NCBI GenBank assembly: GCA_964597145.1
Contig: CAZQWH010000001.1
Location: 15,696 to 79,695, forward strand
Direction of reading: 5' to 3'
Length of the DNA stretch: 64,000 nt
From: an uncultured Candidatus Saccharibacteria bacterium
GTDB taxonomy: Bacteria > Patescibacteriota > CAZHWT01
The notes under the pieces are model-generated. The model searched no databases and was not told where the DNA came from. It saw nothing but the letters and a program-made list of their open reading frames with translations. Made by a program: the position numbers and the translations under genes. How positions within the stretch are numbered: the stretch's first letter is position 1; every line of letters starts with the position of its first letter. This document shows positions 7,505 through 63,860 of this stretch, piece by piece.

Positions 7505-8596
7505 CTAGGAAGTAATCCGGCTTTTCTGGCGGGCGATAAGATACGATACAGTGAGGAAGGTAGCCACAATCACCACGCCAATAATCACAAAGGCGTAAAT
7601 CTTTTGTTTGCCTGAAAAAGCCAGGGCTAAGATGCCAAAGATGCCCGTTACCATCCAGTAGATTAAGACTATTTGCCGTTTAGACAAACCAAAATCGAGC
7701 AATTTATGATAAAGGTGGCTGCGGTCACCCCAAATTGGCAATTTACCTTGGGCCAACCGGCGGATAACGGTAATAATTCCATCAATCGTGGGAATACCCA
7801 ACACTAAAATAGCCGCAGCTAGTTTGGCTCCAGACAACATCGAGAGCGTTGCCAATAATAGCCCTAAAAATGACGAGGCACCATATCCAGGCAATTGTCT
7901 CTCCGGAGGAAAGTTGAACGGCAAAAATCCTAAGGCGCAACCAGCTAAAATAAAACACAGGGTAGCGGTGGTGTATTGCATGGGATTGCCGGCCGTAAAT
8001 TGCAACGCCACACCAGCTAAGGTAAAGGCCGCAATAGCCGAGATACCAGACAGTTGCCCTCCAATGCCTTTAGACCAATTGAGCGAGTTAATTAACCACA
8101 TAATCCACAGCAAAGCCAAACCATCAGCCAGGGGATGAATGGTAAACATCCAGCCTCCAGCCTCCAACTTCCAACTAAGTTGGTTTAAATAAATCAACCA
8201 GTTCTTATCGGTAACTGCCGCGAAAGGGTTGGTCACCCAGGGAATAGTAATCCCAGCCAAAATAATAATTACAGCCGAAATACCCAATGTGCCCAATCGA
8301 ACAATCGGATGAATGCTGCGCTTATCATCCATAGTCCCAACCAGCACGTTTAACCCAGCCGCCACAAGTATAGCCCACAATTGTGGCGTCATTGGCACCA
8401 ATAAAACGGACCCAATCACGAACGCCATATACATCGCAATCCCGCCTCCGCGCGGTAACGGCTTCGATTGCAAGACCCCTGGATGATCTGGCTTAGCGTA
8501 ATCGATTAAGTCAAAGTGCCGAGCCAAGCCTAGGGCGATGGGGGTAAAGAGCACCGTCAGGCCAAAAGCAAGCAGGGTGGCAAATGCATATTCCAT
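7505..8596 (-). CDS. glycosyltransferase family 4, polyprenyl-phosphate N-acetylhexosamine-1-phosphate transferase (WecA/MraY-like)
   Basis: MEYAFATLLAFGLTVLFTPIALGLARHFDLIDYAKPDHPGVLQSKPLPRGGGIAMY... is a typical MraY/WecA topology. I chose the ATG at 8594-8596 as the start rather than the longer track ORF, which begins at 8731. Confidence 0.75.
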   Translation of the reverse strand: MEYAFATLLAFGLTVLFTPIALGLARHFDLIDYAKPDHPGVLQSKPLPRGGGIAMYMAFVIGSVLLVPMTPQLWAILVAAGLNVLVGTMDDKRSIHPIVRLGTLGISAVIIILAGITIPWVTNPFAAVTDKNWLIYLNQLSWKLEAGGWMFTIHPLADGLALLWIMWLINSLNWSKGIGGQLSGISAIAAFTLAGVALQFTAGNPMQYTTATLCFILAGCALGFLPFNFPPERQLPGYGASSFLGLLLATLSMLSGAKLAAAILVLGIPTIDGIITVIRRLAQGKLPIWGDRSHLYHKLLDFGLSKRQIVLIYWMVTGIFGILALAFSGKQKIYAFVIIGVVIVATFLTVSYLIARQKSRITS

Positions 8597-8754
8597 AGAC
8601 TTTAAGTATAGCAGGCATAGAATAGAAATTGAGGGTAAAGCCTGCCAATAATTACCCCCAGCCCCAAAGCCAACCTCAAGCTCACCCCACCCACTCCATC
8701 TCAACCACCGTATCCGAGAATACCCAAACAAAACAATTCATCACAAATTTTAAA

Positions 8755-8821
8755 TCAAGCAACCTAGGTTCAAACACATTTAACCTCGGGGGTTAAACAG
8801 CTTTGAACCTAGGTTGCTTGA
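8755..8821. repeat. solo REPIN-like palindromic element (arm-core-arm)
   Basis: Perfect 20-bp inverted arms tcaagcaacctaggttcaaa / tttgaacctaggttgcttga flank the core ttaacctcgggggttaaa. The same arm and core sequences flank the RAYT gene at 27847-28723. Confidence 0.7.
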
Positions 8822-8957
8822 TTGAGTTGAAATGGATAAGAATCCGAGGTTGCCTGGGAGGAGATAGTCAAGCAGCCAGCATTATTCATAATGGTGTTTA
8901 ATGAGCTATAGTGTAAGATGAGGGAGGGTTGAATGCACCAATTGAGAGGAGTACGTA

Positions 8958-9850: not shown

Positions 9851-9880
9851 GAGCCCCAAAGTGTAAACACTTTGGGGCTC
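9851..9880. terminator. bidirectional terminator hairpin
   Basis: gagccccaaagtgtaaacactttggggctc. A T-run follows on the minus strand and an A-run precedes on the plus strand. It lies between convergent galU and the small GC-rich gene. Confidence 0.55.
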
Positions 9881-9896
9881 TACTGTAACCGCCAAA

Positions 9897-10097
9897 CTAC
9901 CGGTCGTAGTCGTCGAAGTCGACGACCTCGTCGCGATGGTCCTCGCGCCGTCGTTCTTGCTCCTCCTCCAGCTCCTGAGGAGTGAACCATCCTTGACGAC
10001 CATTAGCTGCGCCGAAGCGTCGGCCATCATCGACGTCGATGATGCCTCGCCGGTTACCCTCGAAGTCGTCAGTGGTCCGACAAAATCCAGTAGCCAT
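9897..10097 (-). CDS. small highly acidic hypothetical protein (GC-rich island)
   Basis: A strong Shine-Dalgarno AAGGAG lies 7 nt before ATG (MATGFCRTTDDFEGNRRG...EEEQERRREDHRDEVVDFDDYDR). Local GC is far above its surroundings. Confidence 0.45.
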   Translation of the reverse strand: MATGFCRTTDDFEGNRRGIIDVDDGRRFGAANGRQGWFTPQELEEEQERRREDHRDEVVDFDDYDR

Positions 10098-10663: not shown

Positions 10664-12097
10664 ATGGATACTCCTGCGAGCCAGCCAGCTGTCAACCCAG
10701 CCCCTTCTACTCCTGCGCCCACCCCAACTCCAGTACCAGCATCAACCTCTGGAGGCGGATCAGGAAAGAAATTATTGTTTATAGCCGTTGGCGCCTTACT
10801 GCTGATCTTGATTTTGGGACTCGTAGCCTTCTACTTTTTGCGTGGTAACCAGGCCAACTCCAACAAACCAGTAACCCTAACCTATTGGGGATTATGGGAA
10901 TCGCCCGAAATCATGCAGCCGCTGATTGATCAATATCATCAAGACCATCCCAATGTCACCATCAACTATGAGCAACGCCCTATCGACCAGCACTATGCTA
11001 CAGTCAAGGCTCGGATTAGCCAGGCCAGCACCAGCAATAACCAGCCAGACATTGTACGGGTTCATAATTCTTGGGTTCCAGTTTTAGCTAATTATTTATC
11101 ACCGGTACCAGCTAGTGCCTACAGCCGCGAAGAATACGAATCAGTTTTTTATAACGTTACCAAAGATAACCTATTACTTAATGGTCAGTATTACGGCATT
11201 CCATTAATGATGGATGGTTTAGCCTTAGTTTATAATCAGGAGTTATTTAATACAGCTGGAATCTCGGCTCCGCCTTCTACCTGGGACGACGTGCGCCATG
11301 ATGCAGCCAAAATCACCCAACGTGACCAAAATGGTAACTTGACCATAGCCGGCATTGCCATGGGTAGCGCTAAGAATGTCGATCATTTTGCCGATATTAT
11401 TGGTCTGTTAATGGCTCAAAATAGCGTGGCCTTCAAAGACGGCAATGGCAATGTGGCTTTCGATAAATCTATTTCAGCCGACGGTCGCAACCTGGGCGCA
11501 GAAGCCCTAGCTTTCTTTAACTTATTCTCAACCGTAGAAAAAGGTTGGGACGACACCATGGAGCCATCTACGCTAGCTTTTAGTAAAGGTAAAGTCGGGA
11601 TGATTTTAATACCGTCGTGGCGGGTATTGTCATTGGTAGACCAAAACCCCGAATTGCAAATTAGGGTCGCACCTGTGCCACATTTAACCACCAACCAAAA
11701 AGTAGGCTATGCATCGTATTGGGTAGAGGCAGTGCCAGCCTCCAGCCCAAATCAAGCCGAAGCCTGGAAATTCTTACGCTACTTGTCAGAACGAGAGCAA
11801 CAATTAACCATGTTTAATGCTGCACAGCAAACCCGCAGCTTCGGTGAGCCCTATTCACGCAAAGATTTAGCTGACAGCTTATCCACCGATCCACTACTGG
11901 CACCGTTCGGCAGCCAGGCAGCTAACTACACCAGCTCATTATTTGCAACAAATACCGGTGCCGCCGAGTTAAATGGTGCCATCAATGCCGCCCTCGCCCA
12001 GGCCATAACCCAGGCTAAAACTACCGAATCGGCCGAAGCCGCCCTCACAACATTGGCCGAAAAAGTCACCTCCATCCTCACTCAAGAACGGCAATAA
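10664..12097 (+). CDS. ABC-transporter family-1 extracellular solute-binding protein with a P/T-rich N-terminal linker and TM anchor
   Basis: Pro/Thr/Ala-rich N-terminus, a TM helix, then a sugar-binding-protein-like core (LTYWGLWESPEIMQPLIDQY...). No permease or ATPase gene is adjacent. Confidence 0.7.
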   Translation: MDTPASQPAVNPAPSTPAPTPTPVPASTSGGGSGKKLLFIAVGALLLILILGLVAFYFLRGNQANSNKPVTLTYWGLWESPEIMQPLIDQYHQDHPNVTINYEQRPIDQHYATVKARISQASTSNNQPDIVRVHNSWVPVLANYLSPVPASAYSREEYESVFYNVTKDNLLLNGQYYGIPLMMDGLALVYNQELFNTAGISAPPSTWDDVRHDAAKITQRDQNGNLTIAGIAMGSAKNVDHFADIIGLLMAQNSVAFKDGNGNVAFDKSISADGRNLGAEALAFFNLFSTVEKGWDDTMEPSTLAFSKGKVGMILIPSWRVLSLVDQNPELQIRVAPVPHLTTNQKVGYASYWVEAVPASSPNQAEAWKFLRYLSEREQQLTMFNAAQQTRSFGEPYSRKDLADSLSTDPLLAPFGSQAANYTSSLFATNTGAAELNGAINAALAQAITQAKTTESAEAALTTLAEKVTSILTQERQ

Positions 12098-12537
12098 CCT
12101 CCGATAGTTCAAACCCCATAATCACCATCCGTCATTCCAACTGGCCTTTAACTGTGAGCGCCGGTAGAATTGGATCGGGAGTCTGTGCCGTAAAAAATAA
12201 ATTCGAAATTCTAAACTTGAAATCTTAAACAAATACTCCGTATAAATCAAAGATTTAGCAGAAGCTCTAAATCATAAATTTTAAATAAGACTCAAGACAA
12301 AAGACAAAAAGACTAAAACCCACCCTCTCCCCGTCATTGCGAATAAAATGAAGCAATCTTCTCTATCCCCACCAGGATCTGCCCGCCATGCCGTCGCCGG
12401 CGAAGCGGGCAGATTGCCATAGTCGCCCACGCTCCTCATTCGAGGCTGATCCTTCGACCATGAGCTTGAGACTGTCGAATGGGCAATGAGGCTTGAGTCT
12501 TTAGAGCCGAACGGCTTCGCCATGACGTATACTAACC

Positions 12538-12600
12538 TTCTCCAGACTCCAGACTCCAGACTCCAGACTCCAGACTCCAGACTCCAGACTCCAGACTCCC
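12538..12600. repeat. heptanucleotide tandem repeat (TCCAGAC) x about 8.5
   Basis: Directly visible perfect 7-bp tandem array in the galU-SBP-groES intergenic region. Confidence 0.9.
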
Positions 12601-12732
12601 GCATCCCGACACCAGACACCCTCCCCATCATTCTAGAACCAAGCACAGCCAAGAGCTAAAATTCCTCCGCTATCCGCTATCCGCTATTTCCAACCTTATA
12701 CGCTGCAATCCAACAGACTCAACTCTCGCCTC

Positions 12733-12787
12733 TTGACAGTCTGAGCTAGCTATCACTATAATAGCACTGCACTTATTCAAGTGCTAA
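12733..12787 (+). promoter_or_regulatory. groESL promoter (TTGACA-N18-TATAAT) overlapping a CIRCE operator (aTAGCACTg-N9-aAGTGCTAA)
   Basis: Matches the CIRCE consensus TTAGCACTC-N9-GAGTGCTAA at 12761-12787, with -35 and -10 boxes immediately upstream. Confidence 0.75.
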
Positions 12788-12843
12788 TTTCAAATTGTAT
12801 AACACAGGTTATTGTAAATATAACGATATAAGGAGGTTTTTAT

Positions 12844-13159: not shown

Positions 13160-14914
<1,755 letters not shown>

Positions 14915-14955
14915 GAAGTTCAAAAGTCAAAAGACATAAGTCACAGTACATAGAA

Positions 14956-17946: not shown

Positions 17947-17988
17947 CCTCTACATGTTTACTCGAACACTGTAGAGGTTTTTGTTTGG
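17947..17988 (+). terminator. rho-independent terminator
   Basis: cctctaca-N15-tgtagagg followed by TTTTTGTTTGG. Confidence 0.55.
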
Positions 17989-18007
17989 CTTGTTATATAC
18001 TAGAAAT

Positions 18008-19444
18008 ATGAGTTATGAACAAGGTTTAGGCGCGCCAGCTGAAGCAGAACAGTTTAAATTTGGCGCAAAGCCAGCAGCGGAGAAGGCTACTGCTGTAGCT
18101 TTTGGCGAGGATCAATTTTACTCAGAGTCCCCTACGTACGAATTTGAGCCACAGCCAGCCGACACTTTGCACACCTCGTATGGCAAAGTGTTTTTAGAGC
18201 GAACTCTAGAAGAGCACCCTAACCGATCCGAGCAAGAAACGGCCGATGCAGAGAGAGTATTTGCCGAATTTGACCATCAGCAATTTGAAAACCTAGAAAT
18301 AGTTGAGTCTTCGCGTTATCCCGGAGTTAAATTTACTAAATCGACGGTGCATGTATCACCCGAAACTATGAGGCGCATATACGGCAATGAGTCCAATGCA
18401 GCCGATAGCCAAGACACTATTCCGGCTCAGCCAACGGCTAAAAAAACAATTGTCCTTTGGGGCTCTTTTGCTGCACCACCAGATGGCCATGCACTCAGCA
18501 TGGGCGATGCTATTTTTGACCGGGCAATTCAGGAGATTGGTATGGTATCTAATCGGATGGGCAGTCAGCACCCCATAGAGGTCGAGATTCAAATCTTGGG
18601 AGCACCAACTGGGCTAGGTGGTGAGGTGACACCGGAATATGTCAAAGACTTTAAGCAGCGCGGTTTAGACGCTAGCTCCGATATGTATGCCGAATATATT
18701 CAAGAGCATATCTTACCACCTGGCTTTATAGATATGCCTCCAGAGCAGCAAGCCGAGGTAATGCAAGACCAGCAGTTTGTGTTTGAAGGTGCCTCCAGAG
18801 GGGCAATTTTAGCCGATAAAGCTTACAGCCGTATGCCAGAGTCAATACGCCAAATAACAGCCCGCCGCTTAGATAATCCAGCCGGCCATCACGGTGACTC
18901 AAAACTATGGATGCTTAAGGGTTTGCAGGCTGGATTTGGCCTTGTTGGAGAATTTGCCCGGAATCTTATTGATAAGGATCGCCCATTGCGAGAGTTAATG
19001 GCTCAGGATAAAAAGCTTTATGCGGCGATGCGGCAAAAGTTTGGAATTCCTGATAATGAGCCTAAAGACCAAGCCAAGCTGAAAAATGCGGCAATGATAG
19101 CCGAGCTAAAAACATTGGGCAGGGGCGAAAGCTTATCGGAAGATGCAACTCGCCGGTACATCGTCCACGCCGTCAATGATTTACTCACCATGAATCCTTA
19201 CAAACGATCCCGCAAGCTACGGCACGTCAAACCTGGGACGTTGGCTCATAATATGTCAACGACTAATGAAGGCAAAGAATTCTTAATTGAAGGCGGACAT
19301 TTTTTTAAACCATTTGAGCGATATGCCAGCGATGAAGATGGCAACTTAGGGTCTTGGTGGCGGATGATTAATGCTGGAAGGCGAATGAGCGACGAAGTCG
19401 CTCAGAAGGCTGAGGGTGGTGTCAGCGAAACTGACAGGAGATAG
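18008..19444 (+). CDS. large hypothetical soluble protein
   Basis: The track ORF starts at a TTG at 17981. The first ATG, at 18008 (MSYEQG...), avoids overlap with the terminator. No recognisable domain. Confidence 0.5.
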   Translation: MSYEQGLGAPAEAEQFKFGAKPAAEKATAVAFGEDQFYSESPTYEFEPQPADTLHTSYGKVFLERTLEEHPNRSEQETADAERVFAEFDHQQFENLEIVESSRYPGVKFTKSTVHVSPETMRRIYGNESNAADSQDTIPAQPTAKKTIVLWGSFAAPPDGHALSMGDAIFDRAIQEIGMVSNRMGSQHPIEVEIQILGAPTGLGGEVTPEYVKDFKQRGLDASSDMYAEYIQEHILPPGFIDMPPEQQAEVMQDQQFVFEGASRGAILADKAYSRMPESIRQITARRLDNPAGHHGDSKLWMLKGLQAGFGLVGEFARNLIDKDRPLRELMAQDKKLYAAMRQKFGIPDNEPKDQAKLKNAAMIAELKTLGRGESLSEDATRRYIVHAVNDLLTMNPYKRSRKLRHVKPGTLAHNMSTTNEGKEFLIEGGHFFKPFERYASDEDGNLGSWWRMINAGRRMSDEVAQKAEGGVSETDRR

Positions 19445-19542
19445 GAGATAGGTGGGGCATATCATGTATATTGTATTAGGTATTATGCATGGGGATGGGC
19501 AAGAGATTCGATTCACGATTAACGATAAACGGCTACTGTCAT

Positions 19543-19638
19543 TGCGAGAGAACGAAGTGACTGCGGCAATCTACACTAGTTCAATCGAGATCTACTATAT
19601 TTCACAAGATTGCCGCGGCTTCGCCTCGCAATGACGGA
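19543..19638. repeat. nested palindromic element GTCATTGCGAG...CTCGCAATGAC
   Basis: Outer inverted repeat gtcattgcgag / ctcgcaatgac and inner inverted repeat gcggcaatct / agattgccgcggc. The same arms flank the ~60-bp repeat copy at 40022-40168. Confidence 0.7.
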
Positions 19639-19765
19639 GCAGTTAGCGCTTTTGAGCTTTGCGTTGTGGCTTTACGTCTTTAAATTTGAGTTTTGACCTT
19701 GTAACCTGTCAAAAGCATGTTGTCTAGTATATGTTTTCTATCTATCTGAGTTAAATAGGGTTAAT

Positions 19766-19790
19766 TATATAATATATTATATAATTCTTT
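19766..19790. promoter_or_regulatory. AT-rich perfect palindrome TTAATTATATAATATATTATATAAT (promoter-like element family, copy 1)
   Basis: Identical 25-mers occur at 42686-42710 and 56661-56685. An interrupted copy lies at 63615-63625 / 63693-63702. Confidence 0.6.
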
Positions 19791-19796
19791 TTTTCG

Positions 19797-20855
19797 TTAT
19801 TTCAGGCCGAGCTGGGCTAGCTTTTGGTGGTATTTTTTCATTATTTCCGATTGATAGTCGTGGGGGTGAAAGGCTAGGCGGTTGGGCTGGATGGTTTCTT
19901 TGGTGGGTTGGCGCATGATGCGCTGCTGGAATTTGTGGGCAAGACTGTCAAGCCAACTCAGGATGCGGGATGCGGTGAACAGTGACGAGTGACGAGTGAC
20001 GAGTGACGAGGTGAGGGGGGTGTCGTCATCCTGAACTTGATTCAGGATCTGGAGATTGGGGTGTTTGTAGAGGCTAGATCCTGAAGCGAGTTCAGGGTGA
20101 TAATGCATTTCGGTCAATGGGATGCGGGGGGTCGGAGGTCGGAGGTCGGAGGCGGATGAGCGGCTTGGGTACCTAGAAGGCTGAAGGCTGAAGGCTGAAG
20201 GCTGGATTTGGGAGGTTGGGAAATTGGGGAGAAAGTCGGTGATCCAGTTATTGATGTGGATATATTGTTCGTAGGTCTGGTGACGATTGAGGATGGGGAT
20301 GATGTGGGCTAGCTCGTTGGCGACGTAGAGGTTACAGTATTCTTCATTCAGATTGTCAATGGATAGCCACATATTGAGGCACAATTTATTATTGACGCGG
20401 CGGGGATCATCGGTTGGTTTGCGACGCCGACCGGTCAGGTTGAGAAGGAGGATGAGGATGAGGCGGGTCAGCCAGAGTCGGTTTCTGTCAGTGATAATCA
20501 GCAAATCAATATCATCGTCGGCTGTGGGGGTACCGCCGGCGACGGAGCCGGTGATGGCGACTAAATTAATCCAAGGGATTAGCCTAAAAATCCAGAGGGA
20601 TTTTTGGGCAGTTTGTAGTTTGTAGTTTGTAGTTTGTAGTTGGTATTTTTTTTGTTTTGCTAATTCGTTACGATTGTTTAATGTCCACGTGTTGTCTTGA
20701 TGTTTGAAGCTGGGTGACTGAACTTTGGACAGCCATTTGATATCTTTCAATTCATGTTGGATCAGATATTTTGATAATTCTTCGGTGGTGAGGGCCTGAT
20801 TGAATAGGTCAGCGTAAGCAAGAGTTTTAATGATGGCGGATTCGAGTTTATCCAT
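19797..20855 (-). CDS. Pol-beta-superfamily nucleotidyltransferase-domain protein carrying in-frame heptamer repeats and a 60-bp repeat element
   Basis: Canonical NTase motif ITGSVAGGTPTADDDIDLLIITD with a downstream acidic strand NMWLSID. The reading frame runs through (CAAACTA)x4, (GAAGGCT)x4, (GGTCGGA)x3 and (ACGAGTG)x3 tracts and through repeat copy E. Confidence 0.5.
   Translation of the reverse strand: MDKLESAIIKTLAYADLFNQALTTEELSKYLIQHELKDIKWLSKVQSPSFKHQDNTWTLNNRNELAKQKKYQLQTTNYKLQTAQKSLWIFRLIPWINLVAITGSVAGGTPTADDDIDLLIITDRNRLWLTRLILILLLNLTGRRRKPTDDPRRVNNKLCLNMWLSIDNLNEEYCNLYVANELAHIIPILNRHQTYEQYIHINNWITDFLPNFPTSQIQPSAFSLQPSRYPSRSSASDLRPPTPRIPLTEMHYHPELASGSSLYKHPNLQILNQVQDDDTPLTSSLVTRHSSLFTASRILSWLDSLAHKFQQRIMRQPTKETIQPNRLAFHPHDYQSEIMKKYHQKLAQLGLK
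20031..20099. repeat. GTCATCC...GATGAC-family composite palindrome, copy E (inside the NTase ORF)
   Basis: gtcatcctgaacttgattcaggatctgg...agatcctgaagcgagttcagggtgat. Confidence 0.6.
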
Positions 20856-23570: not shown

Positions 23571-23730
23571 GCGTGAGCATGGCGGGCAGGTCTTGGTTGG
23601 GTACAGAAGATTGCTTCATTACATTCGCAATCACGGACAATCTCTTCTACAGACTACAGACTACAGACGATAGACTAAAACCCCCGCCCGCCACGCAAGC
23701 CAGCTTGCTGGCGTTGCGGGCAGGTAAAAC

Positions 23731-24192: not shown

Positions 24193-24252
24193 GTCATTCT
24201 GAACTTGTTTCAGAATCCAATCACTTAGATCCTGGATCAAGTCCGGGATGAC
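24193..24252 (-). promoter_or_regulatory. ~60-bp composite-palindrome element, copy A, 21 nt upstream of the hsp20 start codon
   Basis: In the gene orientation it reads GTCATCCCGGACTTGATCCAGGATCTAAGTGATTGGATTCTGAAACAAGTTCAGAATGAC. It is near-identical to the copy upstream of dnaK. Confidence 0.7.
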
Positions 24253-24474
24253 AAGTCTGAGTAAGTATCATCTCAGCCTTGTCAACTTACCTAACTCACT
24301 ACCAACTACCATATACTTACAGTAGCTAGGTTGCTGCAAGCACGCACATGCCGAAGATAGATGCCAATCTTCGGTTGTATGTGCGGATGATTGATATGAA
24401 ACCCACCTCCCAACTAATTCTTACCCATCTGTCAAAACAGAAATTAGCTGAGAGGTGGGTTCGTTTGGATGTAG

Positions 24475-27510: not shown

Positions 27511-27846
27511 TTAAGTTAAGAGTGGTAAGGTCTAAGTTAGAAGTAAAAACACCCCGCCCCTGAGCAGGGTGTTTTGTTGCACCTTAAGCAGAGAGCGGCT
27601 GCAGCATCGATAGCAACCAGTTAAGCTCATCAGCCCCAGCTTCATGATTGTGTGTCTCTCTCGGCTGGCGCAGATAGAGCAAACGCATGCCTCCGTTGCA
27701 GCTGATAACTAAACCAGTGGCAGCATCGAACTGTACATTGAGCGTGACTGCTGAAAAACAAGCGTAACTAGCTTCGCGAACTGGACGCATTTGGCGGTTA
27801 TGCCCTTCACAGAGATCAGCAGCATCGGCATAAGCGGTGTAAAATG

Positions 27847-28723
27847 TAACCCCGGGGGTTAAATGAGCTTGAACCTAGGTTGCCTGCTTATTTCGAATGA
27901 GAAACGAGTGTGTTAGTCAGAAACAACGCCCTGGCCTTCGTGCAATAAGTGTTCAAGAGACTTGAGACTCTTTTGATAGTCAGCTTGGTTTAAAACAAAG
28001 TTGCAATAAGAATGCACATCATTGAACATACTTAAAACTGGGGCAGTGGTAATAAACGAATTCTTGCCTTTTATATAAAGTGGCAATGACGACCAAGGAT
28101 AAGAAAGAATCCCATTTGGGGTTTTTACAAGATAGGCGGTTGACGGATTTAAGTGGATGTAGCGCGATACATGGCTCAGCTGCTCAGCAGTCTCTATTCG
28201 CACAGCCTTAAAGGATGGCAAAAATAGCGTGCCTTTACGTGCATGTTTCAAGTTATAGTAACGAGTATAACTATTTTGAAGTTGACCTAAATATCTTGAA
28301 ATACCATCGTCTTTAACTTGTCTGAGTAATAAGTGGAAGTGGTTAGGCATTATGCAGTAGGCAATCACTTCAACCAAGCGCGACGATGGACTCCAGTTTG
28401 CGCGTATAGCCGCCTGCTGTTCTGAATTAAGAGCTAAATATCGTGAAAAACTAATTGTATTTGCTCCATAGCAGTAAAACTCTAGGCCAGATAGTATTCT
28501 GCGATATTCACGCAAGTCAGTAAATGTTTGACGCTCATCCTGTCCGCGATTAAAAACATGGTATATTTGCCCGTTGCATATAGGATAAATTCTTCTCATA
28601 CGACCCCCAATTAAGTACAACATGGGCAGTGCAGTGAATAACATCAACATATACGCCTCTGCATGCTGATTGTCAAAGTAAACAACCAACCTAGGTTCAA
28701 AGCTGTTTAACCTCGGGGGTTAA
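27847..28723. mobile_element. RAYT/IS200-like element: Y1 HUH transposase flanked by inverted REP-like hairpin repeats
   Basis: Left end 27847-27886 (taaccccgggggttaaatgagcttgaacctaggttgcctg) and right end 28684-28723 (caacctaggttcaaagctgtttaacctcgggggttaaac) are reverse complements of each other. They enclose the transposase gene. Confidence 0.7.
27913..28599 (-). CDS. REP-associated tyrosine transposase (RAYT) / IS200-IS605-family TnpA (Y1 HUH)
   Basis: IYHVFNRG...YCIMPNHFHLLLRQ (HUH motif) ...SYTRYYN (catalytic Tyr region). Start chosen at MRRIYP. The track ORF extends to 28689. Confidence 0.75.
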   Translation of the reverse strand: MRRIYPICNGQIYHVFNRGQDERQTFTDLREYRRILSGLEFYCYGANTISFSRYLALNSEQQAAIRANWSPSSRLVEVIAYCIMPNHFHLLLRQVKDDGISRYLGQLQNSYTRYYNLKHARKGTLFLPSFKAVRIETAEQLSHVSRYIHLNPSTAYLVKTPNGILSYPWSSLPLYIKGKNSFITTAPVLSMFNDVHSYCNFVLNQADYQKSLKSLEHLLHEGQGVVSD

Positions 28724-28976
28724 ACAGTTATTTCATATTGTTTTTACGAATTGAAGGTTTTAGTCATGATGACTGTGTATTTAGTGATCTAATCTGGTCA
28801 CCAAATGCATGACGTAAATCCCTAGAAATTGCCAGATTGCTGTGGTATAGTGCGGCTGGTTGTAATTGTTTGCTTTTACAACGTTTCACCTTGAAAAAAC
28901 GAATACACAAAAACCCATCCAAGTAATACCATGAATGGGTTTGAGAATAACGTAATGTATTTGTGTGCCAATTACA

Positions 28977-35218: not shown

Positions 35219-35706
35219 GCCTTGACTCCTTTTGATTACAGCCCATCACAAAATCTGAGTGAGTGTATCACTATAGGACTAATATGTCAAAAATGTTGAG
35301 TGACGGGTCTGGAATAGCAAATAGCAGATAGCAATAAGCAATATGCAGAGGACGGAAGGTTGAAGGTGGTGCCAGCGAAGCTGTTGGCTATCAGGTGTCA
35401 GGTTTTAATCATTTTGGGATTTCTGATCTCAGATTTGTTTCGAGTTTAGAATTTCAAATTTCGTATTTAGAACCAAGAGTCACCATGTCTGTCATTCTGA
35501 ACTGAAAGTGAAGAATCATACTTTGAAGGTTGAAGGTAGTATTTGGTATGTGGTAGGGGTAATGCTAGGGCATTGGCTGCCATTTGCCATCTGCTAGTTT
35601 AAGGACATCCAACAACAAACCGGAGTGGCGGGGGTAAAAACCTTAGCCAGCTCCGGTTGTTGTGAATATATTGTTGTTTAAACATAGGCAGTGGTACGTA
35701 GATTAC

Positions 35707-36334: not shown

Positions 36335-36523
36335 GTTGACCCTGTTCTCAAGAGTAATCTCGGTTATTTTAGTGATAGGGGAGTATCAGGTAAATTAATC
36401 ACCAGACAGCAGCTTAAGCCAAAAGGCAAGGTTGTTTGTCCGGCAAAAACCAAGCAATTGCACCAATCGATTTGCCAACCTGCTTCGTGGTTTACACCCA
36501 CAAGGTTGAGAAAGGACGGCGTT

Positions 36524-37252
36524 ATGCCCATATCATCCAGGCAAGCACAGCTCTTACGCATTATTATAGAGGAGTATGTCAAGAGCAAGGAAGCGATCGG
36601 CAGTGAGAATATAGTAGCTAAATACAATTTAGGTGTTTCTCCCGCAACAGTCCGCAATGAAATGGCTGCTTTGGCTCAGGAGGGCTACCTCGATCAACCG
36701 CACACTTCTGCCGGGCGGGTACCAACTAGTTTAGGTTTCCGCTTTTACCTGTCGGAGTTAATGGAAGAGCAGGATATTCCTGTTATCTCGGAAGTTGCTA
36801 TTAAACAACGTTTGTGGCAAGAACGGCACGAATTAGAAAACTTGCTGCGTAATGCCGCTCTAGCCCTGGCCGATGAAACGAGGGAGATGGCCATTACGAT
36901 TACCGATAACGGTAAAGTCTATGCCGCTGGTGCAGCCTACATTCTAGATAATCCTGAGTTTTATGATATCGACTTAACGCGGGCAGTCTTGTCCTTAATC
37001 GACCAGTACGACACCCTCCAAGCAATGTTTAGCCGAGGAGGTGAGGAAAACCAGGTTAACGTCCTCATTGGTGCAGATACCGGAATACCAGCCCTGGCAC
37101 CATGTAGCGTTTTATATCGTCACTTTGATTTAGGTCGTGGTCGGGTCGGCACTCTGGGTATTATTGGTCCAGCTCGTATCAACTACCCAACCGTTATCCC
37201 GACAATTCGCTACTTTAGCGACTTAATGAATGAACTGTCCCGTAGTTGGTAA
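36524..37252 (+). CDS. hrcA: heat-inducible transcription repressor HrcA
   Basis: MPISSRQAQLLRIIIEEYVKSKEAIGSENIVAKYNLGVSPATVRNEMAALAQEGYLDQPHTSAGRVPT. SD AAGGACGG upstream of 36524. Confidence 0.85.
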   Translation: MPISSRQAQLLRIIIEEYVKSKEAIGSENIVAKYNLGVSPATVRNEMAALAQEGYLDQPHTSAGRVPTSLGFRFYLSELMEEQDIPVISEVAIKQRLWQERHELENLLRNAALALADETREMAITITDNGKVYAAGAAYILDNPEFYDIDLTRAVLSLIDQYDTLQAMFSRGGEENQVNVLIGADTGIPALAPCSVLYRHFDLGRGRVGTLGIIGPARINYPTVIPTIRYFSDLMNELSRSW

Positions 37253-37424
37253 ACGCGAAGCGTCTACCAACATACGCAAGTTAGAAACAAGAAATTAGAA
37301 ATTCTAAACAAACGAGAAACTTGAAAACATTAATTTGGGAACACATTCCATATGTTATTTATTTAGAATTTGTTTCCTATTTCGGATTTATGATTTCAAA
37401 TTTTGAAATGGAGATTATAGAAAC

Positions 37425-37998: not shown

Positions 37999-38059
37999 TC
38001 GTCATCCCGGACTTGATCCGGGATCTAAGTGATTGGATCCTGAAACAAGTTCAGGATGA
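37999..38059 (+). promoter_or_regulatory. ~60-bp composite-palindrome element, copy B, 31 nt upstream of the dnaK start codon
   Basis: GTCATCCCGGACTTGATCCGGGATCTAAGTGATTGGATCCTGAAACAAGTTCAGGATGAC. It has the same orientation as copy A relative to the downstream gene. Confidence 0.7.
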
Positions 38060-38090
38060 CAATAGGAAATAATTAAAGGAGGAACTTTGT

Positions 38091-40021: not shown

Positions 40022-40168
40022 CGTCATTGCGAGGAGCAGAGCGACGAAGTAATCTTGATAGGCTTTGTGTCATCCTGAATTTAGTTCAGGATCAGGCATT
40101 AGATGCTGAAACTAGTTCAGCATGACATTGGGTTTAGGTAGATTGCCGCGCTTCACTCGCAATGACCA
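40022..40168 (+). promoter_or_regulatory. nested repeats upstream of dnaJ: GTCATTGCGAG / CTCGCAATGAC arms enclosing copy C (40069-40126) of the 60-bp element
   Basis: Copy C: gtcatcctgaatttagttcaggatcaggcattagatgctgaaactagttcagcatgac. The outer arms match the 19543-19638 element. Confidence 0.65.
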
Positions 40169-40207
40169 ACCATATGATAGACTTTCGTCTACGAACTACG
40201 AACATTT

Positions 40208-42598: not shown

Positions 42599-42669
42599 CA
42601 AATCTTTCCCGCCATCCCCGCATACCAGCATACTTGCATACCAACCTATCAACCATGTATGAAAATTAT

Positions 42670-42712
42670 TACAGAGATAAATCATATTAATTATATAATA
42701 TATTATATAATT
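42670..42712 (+). promoter_or_regulatory. promoter-like element ACAGAGATAA-N8-TTAATTATATAATATATTATATAAT (copy 2)
   Basis: Same composite as at 56643-56685 and, degenerately, 46729-46752. Confidence 0.55.
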
Positions 42713-43106
42713 AATTACACTACTGAAATTTCAAAAACATCATCAAATTACTCTATGGCAATCAAATTAATTAAAGACTACAAAGGGGCAAGCTCATCTT
42801 GACTGAAGCAGGTAAATTTGCTATAGTGCAAAAGATTTTGAATGTAGCTGTGGTAGTGTATGAAGGCGGTCCAATAGGTCCGTTTTTTTATTACACATAG
42901 CTTGTTAAAAATGTTGAATAATGAAAAGTGGAAATGATAAAACTAATTCGAAATAATATCACTTTAAAGAAATTTTAAAGAAATGGATTAGTTTTTTCGC
43001 TATTCGCTATTCGAATTTCAGATTTGAACTACTTAGATTCTCAGGCAAGCTGAGAATGACACAAATAATGCGAGGCTAGTGGATTAGTCCGCAAGGAGAA
43101 TTTTTT

Positions 43107-44330: not shown

Positions 44331-44432
44331 GCATTGGTCGACAGTCGACAGTCGGTCATGTTAAGTTACTTAGGTAACTTAGGGTACTTAAGTAACTTAA
44401 AACCCATAAACTAAGAACTAAAAACGATATAT

Positions 44433-48369: not shown

Positions 48370-48480
48370 ATTCAAAATCAGAATAGCGAAATTAGAAACA
48401 AGATTTAAATTAGAAAAACTAAAATTTGCGATTTCATATTTCAAATTTCTGGCTTTAATGAATTATTAAAAGCAATTATT
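48370..48480. repeat. AT-rich inverted-repeat spacer between rpsO and pnp (gaaattagaaa / tttcaaatttc word family)
   Basis: cgaaattagaaacaagatttaaattagaaaaactaaaatttgcgatttcatatttcaaatttctgg. Confidence 0.55.
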
Positions 48481-50687: not shown

Positions 50688-50809
50688 TTTAAGTAAAGCA
50701 GATAGCGGATGGCATTTAGTGGCTAGGTTGACTGATAAAGTACTAAAGCTACACTCTATATGTCTAAGCGCTATACCCTAAACCCTAAACGCTTTGCTAT
50801 ACTAACTTT

Positions 50810-52009: not shown

Positions 52010-52046
52010 CAGATTTGTCATCCCGGACTAGATCTGGGATCTAGCG
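52010..52046 (+). repeat. partial copy D of the GTCATCC...composite palindrome (first hairpin only), upstream of rnj
   Basis: gtcatcccggactagatctgggatctagcgtc. Confidence 0.5.
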
Positions 52047-56611: not shown

Positions 56612-56642
56612 CCCTTATACACTCCTTATTACAGTAAAATAA

Positions 56643-56685
56643 CAGAGATAATTTAGATTAATTATATAATATATTATATAATACT
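56643..56685 (+). promoter_or_regulatory. promoter-like element ACAGAGATAA-N8-TTAATTATATAATATATTATATAAT (copy 3)
   Basis: Identical palindrome 25-mer, with the ACAGAGATAA box upstream. Confidence 0.55.
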
Positions 56686-56839
56686 TTAGTAGACAGGAAG
56701 CCTTACGCCTAAAATCAAATCTCCCCAAATCCCTCAACACCCATAACTCAGATCTCCAAACCAACTCCACCTTCCCGTCATCGCGAGGCGGAGCCGTGGC
56801 GATCTTCCGTAATCTACCCAGATGACTCAGTTGTTAACA

Positions 56840-58066: not shown

Positions 58067-59083
58067 ATGACTCCTCGACGCCGAATCCATCCCGAATCAT
58101 CCCCTCAGCGGACCTTAAATACGAAGCGCACTGGTGATATTTTGCGCCAAGCCCGCCAAGCTCGTGGTGAAAGCCTCGCCCAAGTCAGCCAAGCCATTAA
58201 GGTTCGGGTCTCCATGTTGCAGGCAATCGAGGCTGGCCACTTCTTTGGCTTAACCGACCCGTTATACCTTAAAGGTTTTATCCGAGCTTATGCCGACCAT
58301 CTCGGATTGGCAGAGTCAGAAGTCATGCCCTTCTTTCGCCGAGAATACGATGAGCAACAACACCAACAGCAACTAGCCAAGCCTCTAGCCCCTATTGAAC
58401 CCAAAAAACCCAAAATTACTCCCGGTCGCGTTATAGTGACCATATTAACCATTGCGATTGTGGCGGTGGTAGGGTATAGCTACAATCAATATGTGTCGGT
58501 CGCTCTCACCCCTAAGCTCGAGTTAGTTTCTCCAGTAGATGCCAGCACTGCCGCATCTGGCCAAGTGCTTGTCAAAGGCACCACCGACGCCGACGCCCAA
58601 CTCAGTTTAAATGGACAACCAGTTACCTTAACTCCAGCTGGCGATTTCGAGCTAACCGTAGCCTTAGCCTTAGGCACAAATACCCTCCAACTAAAATCCG
58701 TCAATAAGCTGGGTAAATCCACGGTAGTTGAGCGGACTGTGATTGGTCCACCACGCTTAGCTCAAGCACTTTTGCCTACACCCACCCCAACAGTTTTAGC
58801 CGAATCCACTTCAGAGAGCCAAGCCACTAGTTCGGCCACTCTGTCCGAAGTGGTGGTCGAGGTTAACATTGGGCCTTCGTCGGCCTGGATTGAAGTCCAA
58901 ACCGACGGCCAGCCAGCATTCTCAGGATTAATGTTGCCAGGCTCCACCCAATCATATGCAGGCACCCGCGATATTCACCTCAAAACTGGCAATGCCGGCT
59001 CAACCAGGGTCTCGCTCCACGGCGTAGACCAAGGTCTGCTGGGTAAAGATGGAGAAGTGGTCGAAAAAACTTACCGAAAGTAA
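58067..59083 (+). CDS. RodZ-like protein (XRE-type HTH, TM segment, C-terminal DUF4115-like domain)
   Basis: ILRQARQARGESLAQVSQAIKVRVSMLQAIEAG (HTH_XRE), a central TM helix (ITPGRVIVTILTIAIVAVVGY), and a C-terminal beta-rich domain. Confidence 0.55.
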   Translation: MTPRRRIHPESSPQRTLNTKRTGDILRQARQARGESLAQVSQAIKVRVSMLQAIEAGHFFGLTDPLYLKGFIRAYADHLGLAESEVMPFFRREYDEQQHQQQLAKPLAPIEPKKPKITPGRVIVTILTIAIVAVVGYSYNQYVSVALTPKLELVSPVDASTAASGQVLVKGTTDADAQLSLNGQPVTLTPAGDFELTVALALGTNTLQLKSVNKLGKSTVVERTVIGPPRLAQALLPTPTPTVLAESTSESQATSSATLSEVVVEVNIGPSSAWIEVQTDGQPAFSGLMLPGSTQSYAGTRDIHLKTGNAGSTRVSLHGVDQGLLGKDGEVVEKTYRK

Positions 59084-59314
59084 GTTTTTGGTAGTTAGTA
59101 GTTGGTATATAGTATTTAGCAAAAGCAACTATCAGCAAATATACGGCTGATGGACAGCAATTAAATCTTCCTAGATACTAGATACAAAATACTAGATACC
59201 GAAAACCGGAGACTTCTTCGGTAGCAAGTAGTAAGATTTTGCAAAAAGGCATAGTTTGCCGTTAAACTTAACTATCTGCTAGCTACTAACTACTAAAAAT
59301 CGGAGATTTTTATT

Positions 59315-61087: not shown

Positions 61088-61304
61088 CTGGCATAATCTA
61101 AGCCTCAAAGCCAAAGCTTTGGTTGCAGGCAGGGTGGAGAATGGAGTATAGGACGAAGCTCAAAATCCTCGTCCAAAGAACGACCGTTCTCTGGAAGAAA
61201 AAGGTCAAAACTTTTCTTTTCTCTTCTCTTCGCCAAATCACAAAATACTATCTCCTACCTCCAATCTCCTCTCCCTTCAGCCAGCCATTTGCTACAATAA
61301 AAAT

Positions 61305-63374: not shown

Positions 63375-63860
63375 AGGAAAAGGTCGACAATGAAAAAGGG
63401 ATTGCGGCTTTGTGGTCATTTCTTTACCAACCGAATGCAACATATGCTCCGCCGAGCTCCAATAAAAAGGTTATAGAGAAAGTCATAAGCTCATCCTTAA
63501 AATAGTCATCCACTGGGCGAAAAAAGCAAAGATTAAAACTAAGACCCAAAACACTGTCCTCTTAATGCTCACTACGAATCACAGAGTTATTTAGGGTTAA
63601 TTATATAATTGCCACAATAGGGTATACATCCAATACCCTATTGTCATCCTCAATTAAATTGAGGAACCGCCATTATATAATTAAATTTATTAATAAATAC
63701 TAAATACCAGATGCCATTTACTAGCCACCACATCAGCTTTAGCCAATGCCTGCCTGCTAGCCAAATTGACGGTTGCAATGCTACAATGTAACAAGATATA
63801 GTAACTATCCAACCAAGTAGTAACTCTGAGTTAATTTATTAAAAAGTTGAAGGAACTGCC

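Follow-up and report, generated by a model that had tools for sequence, protein, structure and literature searches.

Heptanucleotide tandem repeats with many different units in a 64-kb stretch of a Patescibacteria genome

What produces tandem repeats that keep a unit length of 7 nt and change their sequence from one locus to the next? The question is raised by a 64-kb stretch of DNA from an uncultured Patescibacteria bacterium (contig CAZQWH010000001.1; the whole stretch is referred to here as the window), in which short heptanucleotide arrays are dispersed among housekeeping genes. The analysis covered this 64-kb window of the genome, with gene calls based on open reading frames (ORFs), and the excess of period 7 was tested on the window and on related loci. 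The output of Tandem Repeats Finder (TRF) comprised 58 rows, and period 7 made up about half. There were 29 exact arrays of period 7 with two or more copies, compared with 2.97±1.78 (maximum, 7) in dinucleotide-preserving shuffles (n=30). Since a length threshold of at least two copies favors period 7, the test was redone with a period-neutral threshold of at least 11 consecutive lag matches, applied alike to all periods from 3 to 11. Ten period-7 arrays were then found, and each other period gave none or one; the period-7 background at this threshold was 0.55 per 64 kb (1.28 Mb from 79 other genomes). Seven period-7 arrays had three or more copies, versus 0.15 per 64 kb expected from the background. 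In a background of 2.2 Mb, period 7 was the commonest non-triplet period (35 arrays, versus 6 each for periods 6 and 8) and the only one that repeatedly dominated single loci, and the density of period-7 plus period-14 arrays in the window was about 7 times that of this background. The original prediction was to fail if period 7 proved no commoner than other periods genome-wide, and on the window it held: the excess is real and far above chance.

The units follow one another head-to-tail, every 7 nt and without spacers, both in TRF and in exact lag-7 runs. By all the defining features of the class, the arrays are heptanucleotide microsatellites, i.e., long simple sequence repeats (SSRs) with a 7-nt unit, which are already known. 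For the same reason they are not clustered regularly interspaced short palindromic repeats (CRISPR), in agreement with the original prediction; the 24- to 48-nt repeats and unique spacers of similar length of CRISPR were not seen among them. Autocorrelation peaks at lags 7, 14, and 21 persisted in noncoding DNA once the exact arrays were masked, so decayed arrays also exist. At least 25 different units occur within the 64 kb, in every kind of position and on both strands. About 20 of the 27 TRF arrays lie in noncoding DNA, which makes up about 21% of the window. The description "mostly intergenic" is accurate to that extent, but four of the eight arrays for which it was given lie in frame inside a real gene. 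All eight exist, with offsets of about 6 nt for (GAAGGCT) and about 8 nt for (CTACAGA), and their copy numbers had mostly been undercounted. The arrays and heptad runs are as follows.

8145-8176, minus strand: heptad run GTTGGAA/GTTGGAG/(GCTGGAG)2 (sense), in frame, in a loop of a GT4 (MraY-like) glycosyltransferase gene.
12294-12309, plus strand: (AAGACAA)x2.3, on the left flank of an GTCATTGCGA element (see below).
12540-12617, plus strand: (CTCCAGA)n, the longest array, with 8.6 exact copies at 12540-12599 and 11.1 copies with its decayed tail (TRF and exact runs), 116-193 nt upstream of the groES -35.
12666-12687, plus strand: (TCCGCTA)x3.1, 46-67 nt upstream of the groES -35.
13166-13268, plus strand: degenerate AT-rich heptads (GAAATTN)n ... 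(NNATTTC)n in the groES-groEL spacer, members of dispersed families D2/D9/D11.
13184-13208, plus strand: (AAATTAG)x3.6, a TRF array inside the run at 13166-13268.
14920-14943, plus strand: (TCAAAAG)x3.4, degenerate, 5 nt past the groEL stop.
19436-19452, plus strand: (AGGAGAT)x2.4, at the stop of ORF 17981-19444.
19509-19531, plus strand: (CGATTAA)x3.3, degenerate, 7 nt from an GTCATTGCGAG element.
19961-19975, minus strand: (GGATGCG)x2.1, in frame in a nucleotidyltransferase-like gene, part of an insertion of about 66 aa.
19981-20010, minus strand: (AGTGACG)x4.3, in frame in the same gene and insertion.
20130-20156, minus strand: (GGTCGGA)x3.3-4.0, in frame in the same gene and insertion; exact run 20130-20152.
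20176-20204, minus strand: (GAAGGCT)x4.1, in frame in the same gene and insertion.
20610-20649, minus strand: (AGTTTGT)x4.6-5.7, sense (AAACTAC)n, in the nucleotidyltransferase-like gene; exact run 20610-20641.
23647-23677, plus strand: (CTACAGA)x3.1-4.4, in the trpS 3' region, flanked by the stop codon and a GC-rich hairpin; exact run 23647-23668.
24298-24311, plus strand: (ACTACCA)x2.0, upstream of hsp20, 46 nt from a GTCATCC doublet.
35313-35343, plus strand: five degenerate (AATAGCA) heptads.
35523-35537, plus strand: (TTGAAGG)x2.1; GAAGGTTGAAGGT occurs at 35355 and 35524.
37281-37408, plus strand: AT-rich heptad runs (AGAAATT)n ... (ATTTCNN)n, upstream of grpE.
40189-40203, plus strand: (CTACGAA)x2.1, with its end 4 nt upstream of the dnaJ ATG, which lacks a Shine-Dalgarno (SD) motif.
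42996-43013, plus strand: (TTCGCTA)x2.6, upstream of nusA.
44337-44354, plus strand: (GTCGACA)x2.6, in the nusA-infB spacer.
48382-48460, plus strand: AT-rich heptad runs upstream of pnp, including (ATTTCAA)x2.7 at 48431-48449.
50771-50790, plus strand: (CTAAACC)x2.9, 19 nt upstream of an AAA-ATPase gene.
59091-59119, plus strand: (GTAGTTA)x4.1, 5' arm of a structured element upstream of glmS.
59171-59199, plus strand: (CTAGATA)x4.1, interior of the same element.
59271-59296, plus strand: (ACTAACT)x3.7, 3' arm of the element, reverse complement of the array at 59091; it ends 18 nt before the glmS start.
61248-61270, plus strand: (CTATCTC)x3.3, degenerate, upstream of ORF 61305-63374.

The settings are thus mixed: upstream of the groES promoter; before the starts of dnaJ, glmS, and the AAA-ATPase gene; after the stops of groEL, trpS, and nusA; and inside two genes. 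Start codons next to arrays are first-in-ORF guesses, and the SD observation applies to dnaJ rather than to starts in general. As a separate observation, the motif CCGCATCC (C-rich strand) adjoins three different arrays (12598-12610, 19961-19975, and 20120-20130) and is itself once a two-copy array.

The arrays are not assembly artifacts, because independent Logan assemblies (16 contigs from at least 10 sequencing runs) matched the window at 100% identity through all arrays below 31 nt in length. All six groES contigs among them start inside the 60-nt array at 12540-12599, where they break because 60 nt exceeds k = 31. In practical terms, such arrays break short-read assemblies of these genomes at predictable places. 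The longest groES contig (L001) ends at window position 20010, the end of the 30-nt (AGTGACG)n run, and does so in three samples. Every 31-mer across that run is unique in the window; therefore, we infer that the assembly graph branches at the pure-repeat 30-mer, which may reflect heterogeneity in copy number or another, identical array elsewhere.

Copy-number heterogeneity would be compatible with contingency loci, in which 7-nt frameshifts or changes in promoter spacing cause phase variation; hypermutable contingency repeats are known to switch genes in Haemophilus. Five arrays lie in one gene, where a change of one unit would shift the frame, and others lie in promoter-proximal DNA. However, no copy-number variation was seen at arrays shorter than 31 nt across the runs (k = 31 contigs, with long arrays outside their reach), the affected genes are housekeeping genes rather than surface genes, and most arrays have only 2-4 copies. 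A role as contingency loci is therefore very unlikely.

Next, syntenic loci from six relatives were compared with the window (L177, with the Logan contig L178 of the same sequence; L179/L180; L181; L182; L183; and L184). GroEL in this clade is 81-94% identical to that of the window, L181 being the closest relative (94%). At a threshold of at least 9 lag matches, the syntenic DNA contained 10 arrays in the window (27.5 kb), 2 in L179, and 2 in L184, and none was found in that of L177, L182, L183, or L181. The spacer between the SBP gene and groES is 746 nt long in the window versus 129-257 nt in the relatives, and the longest array (12540-12617) was missing from all five relatives compared; in L181, the stop-to-promoter distance upstream of groES is about 75 nt, without an array or MITE (miniature inverted-repeat transposable element). 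The present array load is thus a recent, lineage-specific burst. L177 (GCA_964554805.1), which has no period-7 arrays, has three period-13 loci with unrelated pyrimidine-rich units (9877-9978, 11762-11845, and 18514-18539); two of them flank groEL, and about 0.2 would be expected from the background, the observation being post hoc.

At the (TCCGCTA)3 site (12666), the relatives have one similar copy (L182: TTATCCGT), i.e., a single-copy proto-unit. After groEL, L181 has degenerate NNNAAAG heptads where the window has (TCAAAAG)x3.4. The trpS 3' array is orthologous in L179, with the left border C[T/C]CTT|CTAC common to both. The window has about 4 copies of CTACAGA there, and L179 has 9.7 copies of CTACTGT followed by a block of 4.9 copies of CTACAGT, 13.7 copies in all, with a small hairpin inside the array. 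These differences at trpS are the classic signature of slippage plus mutation. The copy-number comparison proposed with the original prediction was therefore positive between relatives, where trpS differs by whole units (about 4 versus 13.7), but not within the population, whose assemblies are identical at arrays shorter than 31 nt. No borders shared among the arrays were found, and many arrays have decayed edges.

Birth, expansion, homogenization, and decay of microsatellites in situ predict the observed turnover, the proto-unit, and the trpS ortholog. We assign a probability of roughly 60% to slipped-strand mispairing as the origin of the arrays, with steps of 7 nt, hairpins as local promoters of the slips, and inverted pairs arising through template switching. 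Under this model, an array would be born in place when a local 7-mer is duplicated by slipped-strand mispairing at replication, and further one-unit slips would expand and homogenize it. Point mutations would create variant units that could be amplified in blocks, and the array would finally decay to a degenerate heptad run. The process would recently have been unusually active in the lineage of the window, and arrays would persist where they are tolerated, namely, in spacers, 5' and 3' untranslated regions, and poorly conserved protein linkers, the last provided that the total length is a multiple of 3 and the sense strand is free of stop codons. Hairpins beside arrays may act by stalling the replisome, which would promote slippage and template switching, or the elements may insert preferentially at arrays; complementary arrays in inverted pairs would be accounted for by intrastrand template switching. 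For the step of 7 nt, Mrazek's polymerase-footprint idea may apply. The original prediction that the arrays have a generating mechanism in common, not a sequence, is supported, and its naming of slipped-strand products fits the comparative data: an orthologous array that differs in unit and in number of copies, variant units that come in blocks, and a proto-unit present once in relatives.

The same prediction had set the arrays apart from coding repeats, and in this respect it failed, because seven arrays are translated in frame within two conserved genes. The first is the 352-aa ORF 19797-20855 (minus strand), a real and syntenic nucleotidyltransferase-like gene whose homologs are typically 284-292 aa long. 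Relative to L179 (287 aa) and L177 (274 aa), the protein of the window has an in-frame insertion of about 66 aa made up of (GAAGGCT)4, (GGTCGGA)3.3, a GTCATCC hairpin doublet, (AGTGACG)4.3, and (GGATGCG)2.1. A fifth array in this gene, (AAACTAC)n, encodes QLQTTNYKLQT and aligns to homologs without a length change. In L185 (ENA ERZ1761212, a farmland metagenome), whose protein is only about 51% identical, an orthologous (MAACTAC)x4.6 occupies the same codons. The L185 ORF also starts with (AAATCCG)4.7 followed by (CTAGCACC)2 (L185 951-999), and its C-terminal linker carries a different in-frame insertion, (AAWNTCG)5-palindrome-(CGNATTT)3 (L185 1640-1790; fold z = -2.5), which is independent of that of the window and lies at the same linker site. 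The second gene encodes the GT4 glycosyltransferase (ORF 7505-8731), the start of which was placed at about 8596 (MEYAF...) by alignment with relatives, so the 45-aa N-terminal extension is spurious. Its variable loop contains heptad-phased repeats that differ in sequence between the window, L184 [(CAATTGG)2-CCATCGG], and L182 (a 21-nt duplication). These are clear cases of arrays and hairpins tolerated in frame inside conserved proteins. The 123-aa ORF 12281-12652 over the longest array, in contrast, has no homolog, and its whole region is missing from the relatives; it is a spurious product of stop-free repeats.

The arrays had also been described as often adjacent to 60-bp palindromic elements. 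These palindromes are doublets of about 60 nt, composed of two inverted hairpins (GTCATCCTGAAC...GTTCAGGATGAC; GTCATCC...GGGTGAT), and they are REPIN-like because compensatory substitutions between copies keep the stems. A second, larger element is MITE-like, starts with GTCATTGCGA, and has the termini GTCATTGCGAG...CTCGCAATGAC. The elements and a transposase gene lie at the following positions.

20025-20100, 24193-24252, 38001-38060, and 40069-40128, no strand assigned: GTCATCC hairpin doublets, with singlets at 52017 and 63643.
12333-12535, 19538-19635, and 40023-40166: MITE-like element, with a fragment at about 23590-23640.
27913-28689, minus strand: gene for a Y1/IS200-like transposase of 258 aa (Pfam Y1_Tnp, 36.7 bits, above the cutoff).

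The MITE-like copy between dnaK and dnaJ (40023-40166) has a GTCATCC doublet nested inside it, and the MITE-like element was missing from the orthologous spacers of the relatives. With a hand-curated list of elements, 5 of the 20 noncoding arrays lay within 30 nt of a hairpin or MITE element, versus 0.85 expected by random placement in noncoding DNA (P = 0.002). The association is thus real at short range, but 15 of the 20 arrays are far from any element. Four intragenic arrays additionally flank the GTCATCC doublet at 20025.

Short-range association of this kind would be expected if the heptamers were target-site duplications of the palindromic elements, as the original prediction had allowed. 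This explanation is effectively ruled out because an element never has the same heptamer on both sides (AGTGACG | hairpin | GGTCGGA; AAGACAA | MITE | CTCCAGA). Moreover, up to 8-11 tandem copies stand on one side, and most arrays have no element nearby.

Alternatively, the arrays might be parts or by-products of small mobile hairpin elements, composites with an array on either side of a hairpin, spread or made by a single-stranded DNA (ssDNA) transposase such as the Y1 enzyme of the window. The best NCBIfam match of the Y1/IS200-like gene is the REP-associated tyrosine transposase (RAYT; REP, repetitive extragenic palindromic), and the gene is bracketed (27844-28750) by a REP-like double-palindrome repeat (TTAACCNCGGGGGTTAA + GAACCTAGGTTC) in inverted orientation; a full hairpin doublet of this repeat is present at 8753-8823. 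GTCATCC doublets and GTCATTGCGA MITEs stand beside arrays, the repeat-rich block upstream of groES is missing as a whole from the relatives, and composite in-frame insertions of arrays plus hairpins occur in the same nucleotidyltransferase-like linker in two lineages, with different sequences. Dispersed copies of heptad-armed hairpins in L065 (see below) point in the same direction. However, the RAYT match scores below the NCBIfam cutoff (50 versus 80 bits), the repeats around the RAYT-like gene belong to a different family from the array-adjacent GTCATCC hairpins, and no direct link between that gene and the arrays was found in the window. The arrays have no common termini, three-quarters of the noncoding ones are far from elements, and at trpS and GT4 the orthologous arrays evolve in situ. 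We therefore consider generation by a mobile element improbable. Regardless of the arrays, the gene and its flanking repeats suggest a RAYT/REPIN-like arrangement in a genome of the candidate phyla radiation (CPR) type.

Several points weigh against slippage as the origin. Slippage was not seen directly, and the identity of the population assemblies at arrays shorter than 31 nt gives no sign of hypermutability; nor does anything in the analysis account for the 7-nt step. Two intragenic arrays replace about 30-40 nt without a net change in length, a pattern not expected from simple expansion. Inverted pairs with matching units, together with dispersed copies (D2/D9/D11; L065), are more reminiscent of mobile or selected elements. 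The units are also not random. They had been called unrelated in sequence, and they are diverse, but 6 of the 33 units contain the core ACTAC/GTAGT (Bonferroni P = 7e-4), which defines an AACTACN family, the largest, with six loci in 64 kb. Finally, the sense strand is mostly the C-rich one (16 units versus 6, and 7 of 7 for arrays of at least three copies); for intragenic arrays this follows in part from the need to avoid stop codons. The core and the strand bias hint at selection or at a sequence preference.

If selection is involved, the arrays could be cis-acting elements, i.e., periodic binding sites or RNA structures that tune how neighboring genes are transcribed and translated or how stable their mRNA is, with slippage only varying them; this explanation is compatible with an origin by slippage. 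A cis-regulatory role has been proposed for the TAACTGA repeats of Beggiatoaceae (PMC4679880) and for Nostoc heptamers, and Nostoc reporter data suggest that heptamers modulate the action of regulators. In the window, (CTACGAA)2 stands immediately before the SD-less dnaJ start, arrays of the AACTACN family are sense-oriented just upstream of dnaJ and glmS, and dispersed families of AT-rich (GAAATTN)/(NNATTTC) runs stand upstream of groEL, grpE, pnp, nusA, and ftsK. The intragenic (AAACTAC)n is kept in two lineages in spite of the divergence of their proteins. Upstream of glmS, (GTAGTTA)n and (ACTAACT)n close a 240-nt structure between a rodZ-like gene and glmS (59075-59314; -73 kcal/mol, z = -6.7, 0/200 shuffles). 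Neither a glmS ribozyme nor any other Rfam match was found in this region, the spacer of which could not be aligned with those of L182 and L184.

Heptad-periodic inverted pairs were also found in other genomes. In five independent distant lineages, the spacer just upstream of groEL contains an inverted pair of heptad arrays with lineage-specific units. The groES-groEL spacers with such pairs are as follows.

L112.
L113/L120.
L026.
L034.
L048.
Window, 13166-13268.

Six heptad-periodic loci upstream of groEL compare with 0.4-1.5 expected (Poisson P of 3e-6 to 4e-3, with a rate-based control); four of the five pairs tested folded significantly (z = -2.3 to -5.2), and three further heptad-periodic events lie upstream of groES. 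Such pairs may be a recurrent structural element of chaperonin operons. The AT-rich pairs of the window itself, however, folded as RNA no better than shuffles (groES-groEL pair, z = -1.3), and no binding protein was identified. In addition, the close relatives lack nearly all of the arrays yet retain the promoter, CIRCE, and SD signals, and the arrays of the window comprise at least 25 units in all types of position and on both strands. That the arrays are selected cis-acting elements is, on this evidence, fairly unlikely.

Arrays are even denser than in the window at one locus of a Dehalococcoidia metagenome-assembled genome (MAG), CedChl2 (L065; JBLYPS010000008.1), with 25 exact period-7 arrays in 21.6 kb. 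There, the arrays take the form of dispersed hairpins with heptad-repeat arms around C-rich loops, of which the following are examples.

L065 11618-11679.
L065 13052-13143.
L065 17548-17620.
L065 17918-17997.
L065 20084-20161.
L065 21492-21570.

One such hairpin, (GGAGTCT)n-CCCCCTCCCC-(GACTCTG)n, is completely paired only in the RNA form, through G-U pairs (z = -4.3). A unit shared with the window (GAGTCTG, the reverse complement of CAGACTC) was not counted as evidence of transfer, the chance of one shared unit being estimated at about 40% when about 27 and 22 units are drawn from roughly 1,170 strand-symmetric heptamer classes.

Instead of passive slippage, the 7-nt period might be set by an active, lineage-specific molecular ruler, such as a variant of the replisome, primase, or repair machinery or an ssDNA enzyme acting at hairpins. 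A ruler of this kind may write fixed-period arrays from any sequence that it meets and build heptad-armed hairpins. Pointers toward it are the bursts in one Patescibacteria lineage and in the unrelated Dehalococcoidia MAG, the period-13 arrays that L177 has instead, the two arrays that overwrite coding sequence at constant length, and the heptad-armed hairpins in the groES-groEL spacers of distant phyla. We regard the ruler as a long shot. If it were true, the factor would be found, and the question "why seven?" answered, by comparing the gene content of array-rich relatives with that of array-poor ones. The syntenic relatives (GroEL 84-94% identical), with their sharply different array loads, provide the contrast needed to seek a genetic cause.

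GroEL and gene sharing place the host in Patescibacteria/Microgenomates. The genes of the window include groES-groEL, hrcA (36458-37252) with grpE-dnaK-dnaJ, hsp20, trpS, nusA-infB, pnp, RNase J, ftsK, glmS, and PBP1A. A perfect sigma-70-type promoter (TTGACA-18-TATAAT) precedes groES and is followed by a CIRCE-like repeat, TAGCACTG-N9-AAGTGCTAA (12733-12789); both are kept clade-wide, at orthologous positions in L177 and L181-L184. Among named genomes, the highest GroEL identity is 66-68%, the best matches being WWE3, Microgenomates-type, and "Patescibacteria group" MAGs, and it is chiefly with loci of Davies-, Levy-, Chisholm-, and Gottesmanbacteria that neighboring genes are shared. The named members of the array-bearing nucleotidyltransferase-like family are Patescibacteria/Microgenomates. 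Genome and metagenome scans with GroEL gave matches of at most 66% identity, which were used as background, and a genome scan with a lineage-specific 487-aa ORF returned no relatives. A scan of the whole window gave no Rfam matches. A cyanobacterial origin was considered and ruled out by the lack of HIP1 sites in the window (0 sites); GroEL and the shared genes point to Patescibacteria.

Heptanucleotide repeats have been known in bacteria since 1990 (Mazel et al. 1990, as cited in PMC4692102), and heptanucleotides are the commonest class of long SSRs (Mrazek, Guo & Shah 2007, as summarized in PMC4679880 and PMC4692102), with which the prominence of period 7 in the 2.2-Mb background agrees. According to the same summaries, that survey dealt with cultured bacteria (Burkholderia, Xanthomonas, cyanobacteria, and actinobacteria) and proposed an origin by polymerase slippage (PMC4679880, PMC4692102). 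As far as those summaries go, the arrays of the window agree with these long SSRs in having head-to-tail 7-nt units, many per genome, with period 7 overrepresented and a mainly intergenic location, and they differ in their Patescibacteria/CPR host and in a density about 7 times the background. The presence of heptanucleotide arrays in a Patescibacteria/CPR-type genome, and also in a Dehalococcoidia MAG, appears to be new; the literature that was searched contained no report of heptanucleotide SSRs in Patescibacteria/CPR or Dehalococcoidia. Genomes of the Patescibacteria/CPR type are small and usually thought of as repeat-poor.

The cyanobacterial short tandemly repeated repetitive (STRR) sequences of Mazel and colleagues reportedly have the units CCCCAGT, TTGGTCA, and CAACAGT; none of these units occurs in tandem in the window. 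Like the STRRs of Calothrix PCC 7601 (Mazel et al. 1990, cited in PMC4692102), the arrays of the window are dispersed tandem heptanucleotides that prefer noncoding DNA and keep company with hairpins and MITEs. STRRs comprise few units at very many loci in heterocystous cyanobacteria, whereas the window has at least 25 units and a noncyanobacterial host.

TAACTGA direct repeats have been described in marine Beggiatoaceae, some cyanobacteria, and Bacteroidetes (MacGregor 2015, PMC4679880). They occur in sets of 2-6 copies, often a few nt upstream of starts without a canonical SD, contigs end in them, and strains differ by indels in 7-nt steps (PMC4679880). Traits of that system also seen in the window are heptamer sets that are mostly intergenic, some just upstream of SD-less starts, and occasional in-frame copies (PMC4679880). 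TAACTAC/AACTACN, the commonest family of the window, shares 5 of 7 bases with TAACTGA, which itself occurs in the window as eight single copies and never in tandem. BOGUAY has one predominant unit and few related heptamers (PMC4679880), whereas the units of the window are diverse. A majority of sets just upstream of starts in forward orientation, as described by MacGregor, was not found in the window; only the arrays at dnaJ, glmS, the AAA-ATPase gene, and some further ones conform, and the rest lie 3' of genes, upstream of promoters, or within genes. The G-rich heptamers GGGAATC (Xanthomonas) and GGGGAYT (Nostoc) form G-quadruplexes (Rehm et al. 2015, PMC4692102). Like them, the arrays of the window are intergenic SSRs that vary in length and sequence between close relatives at conserved positions, some as inverted pairs (PMC4692102), but they are mostly G-poor on the sense strand and have no G-tracts.

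The hairpins and in-frame insertions also have counterparts elsewhere. In Nostoc punctiforme, small dispersed repeats (SDR), attributed to Elhai and colleagues in 2008, are said to be short hairpins with compensatory substitutions and nested insertions that often lie within or beside heptamer arrays. The elements are cited as SDR in PMC3116915. The hairpins of the window have other sequences and another host and form REPIN-like doublets of about 60 nt, with a RAYT-like gene present. Rickettsia palindromic elements (RPEs), attributed to Ogata and colleagues in 2000, are reportedly in-frame insertions in protein genes and form one family of about 100-150 nt. Like RPEs, the insertion in the nucleotidyltransferase-like gene is selfish repeat DNA tolerated in frame in a variable region of a conserved protein; unlike them, it is a mosaic of four heptamer arrays and a hairpin.

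A further dispersed element of the window is AT-rich, about 48 nt long, and contains the palindrome TTAATTATATAATATATTATATAATT. Four copies lie in spacers (19743-19790, 42669-42716, 56640-56687, and 63579-63626), and the element could be a promoter or a terminator.

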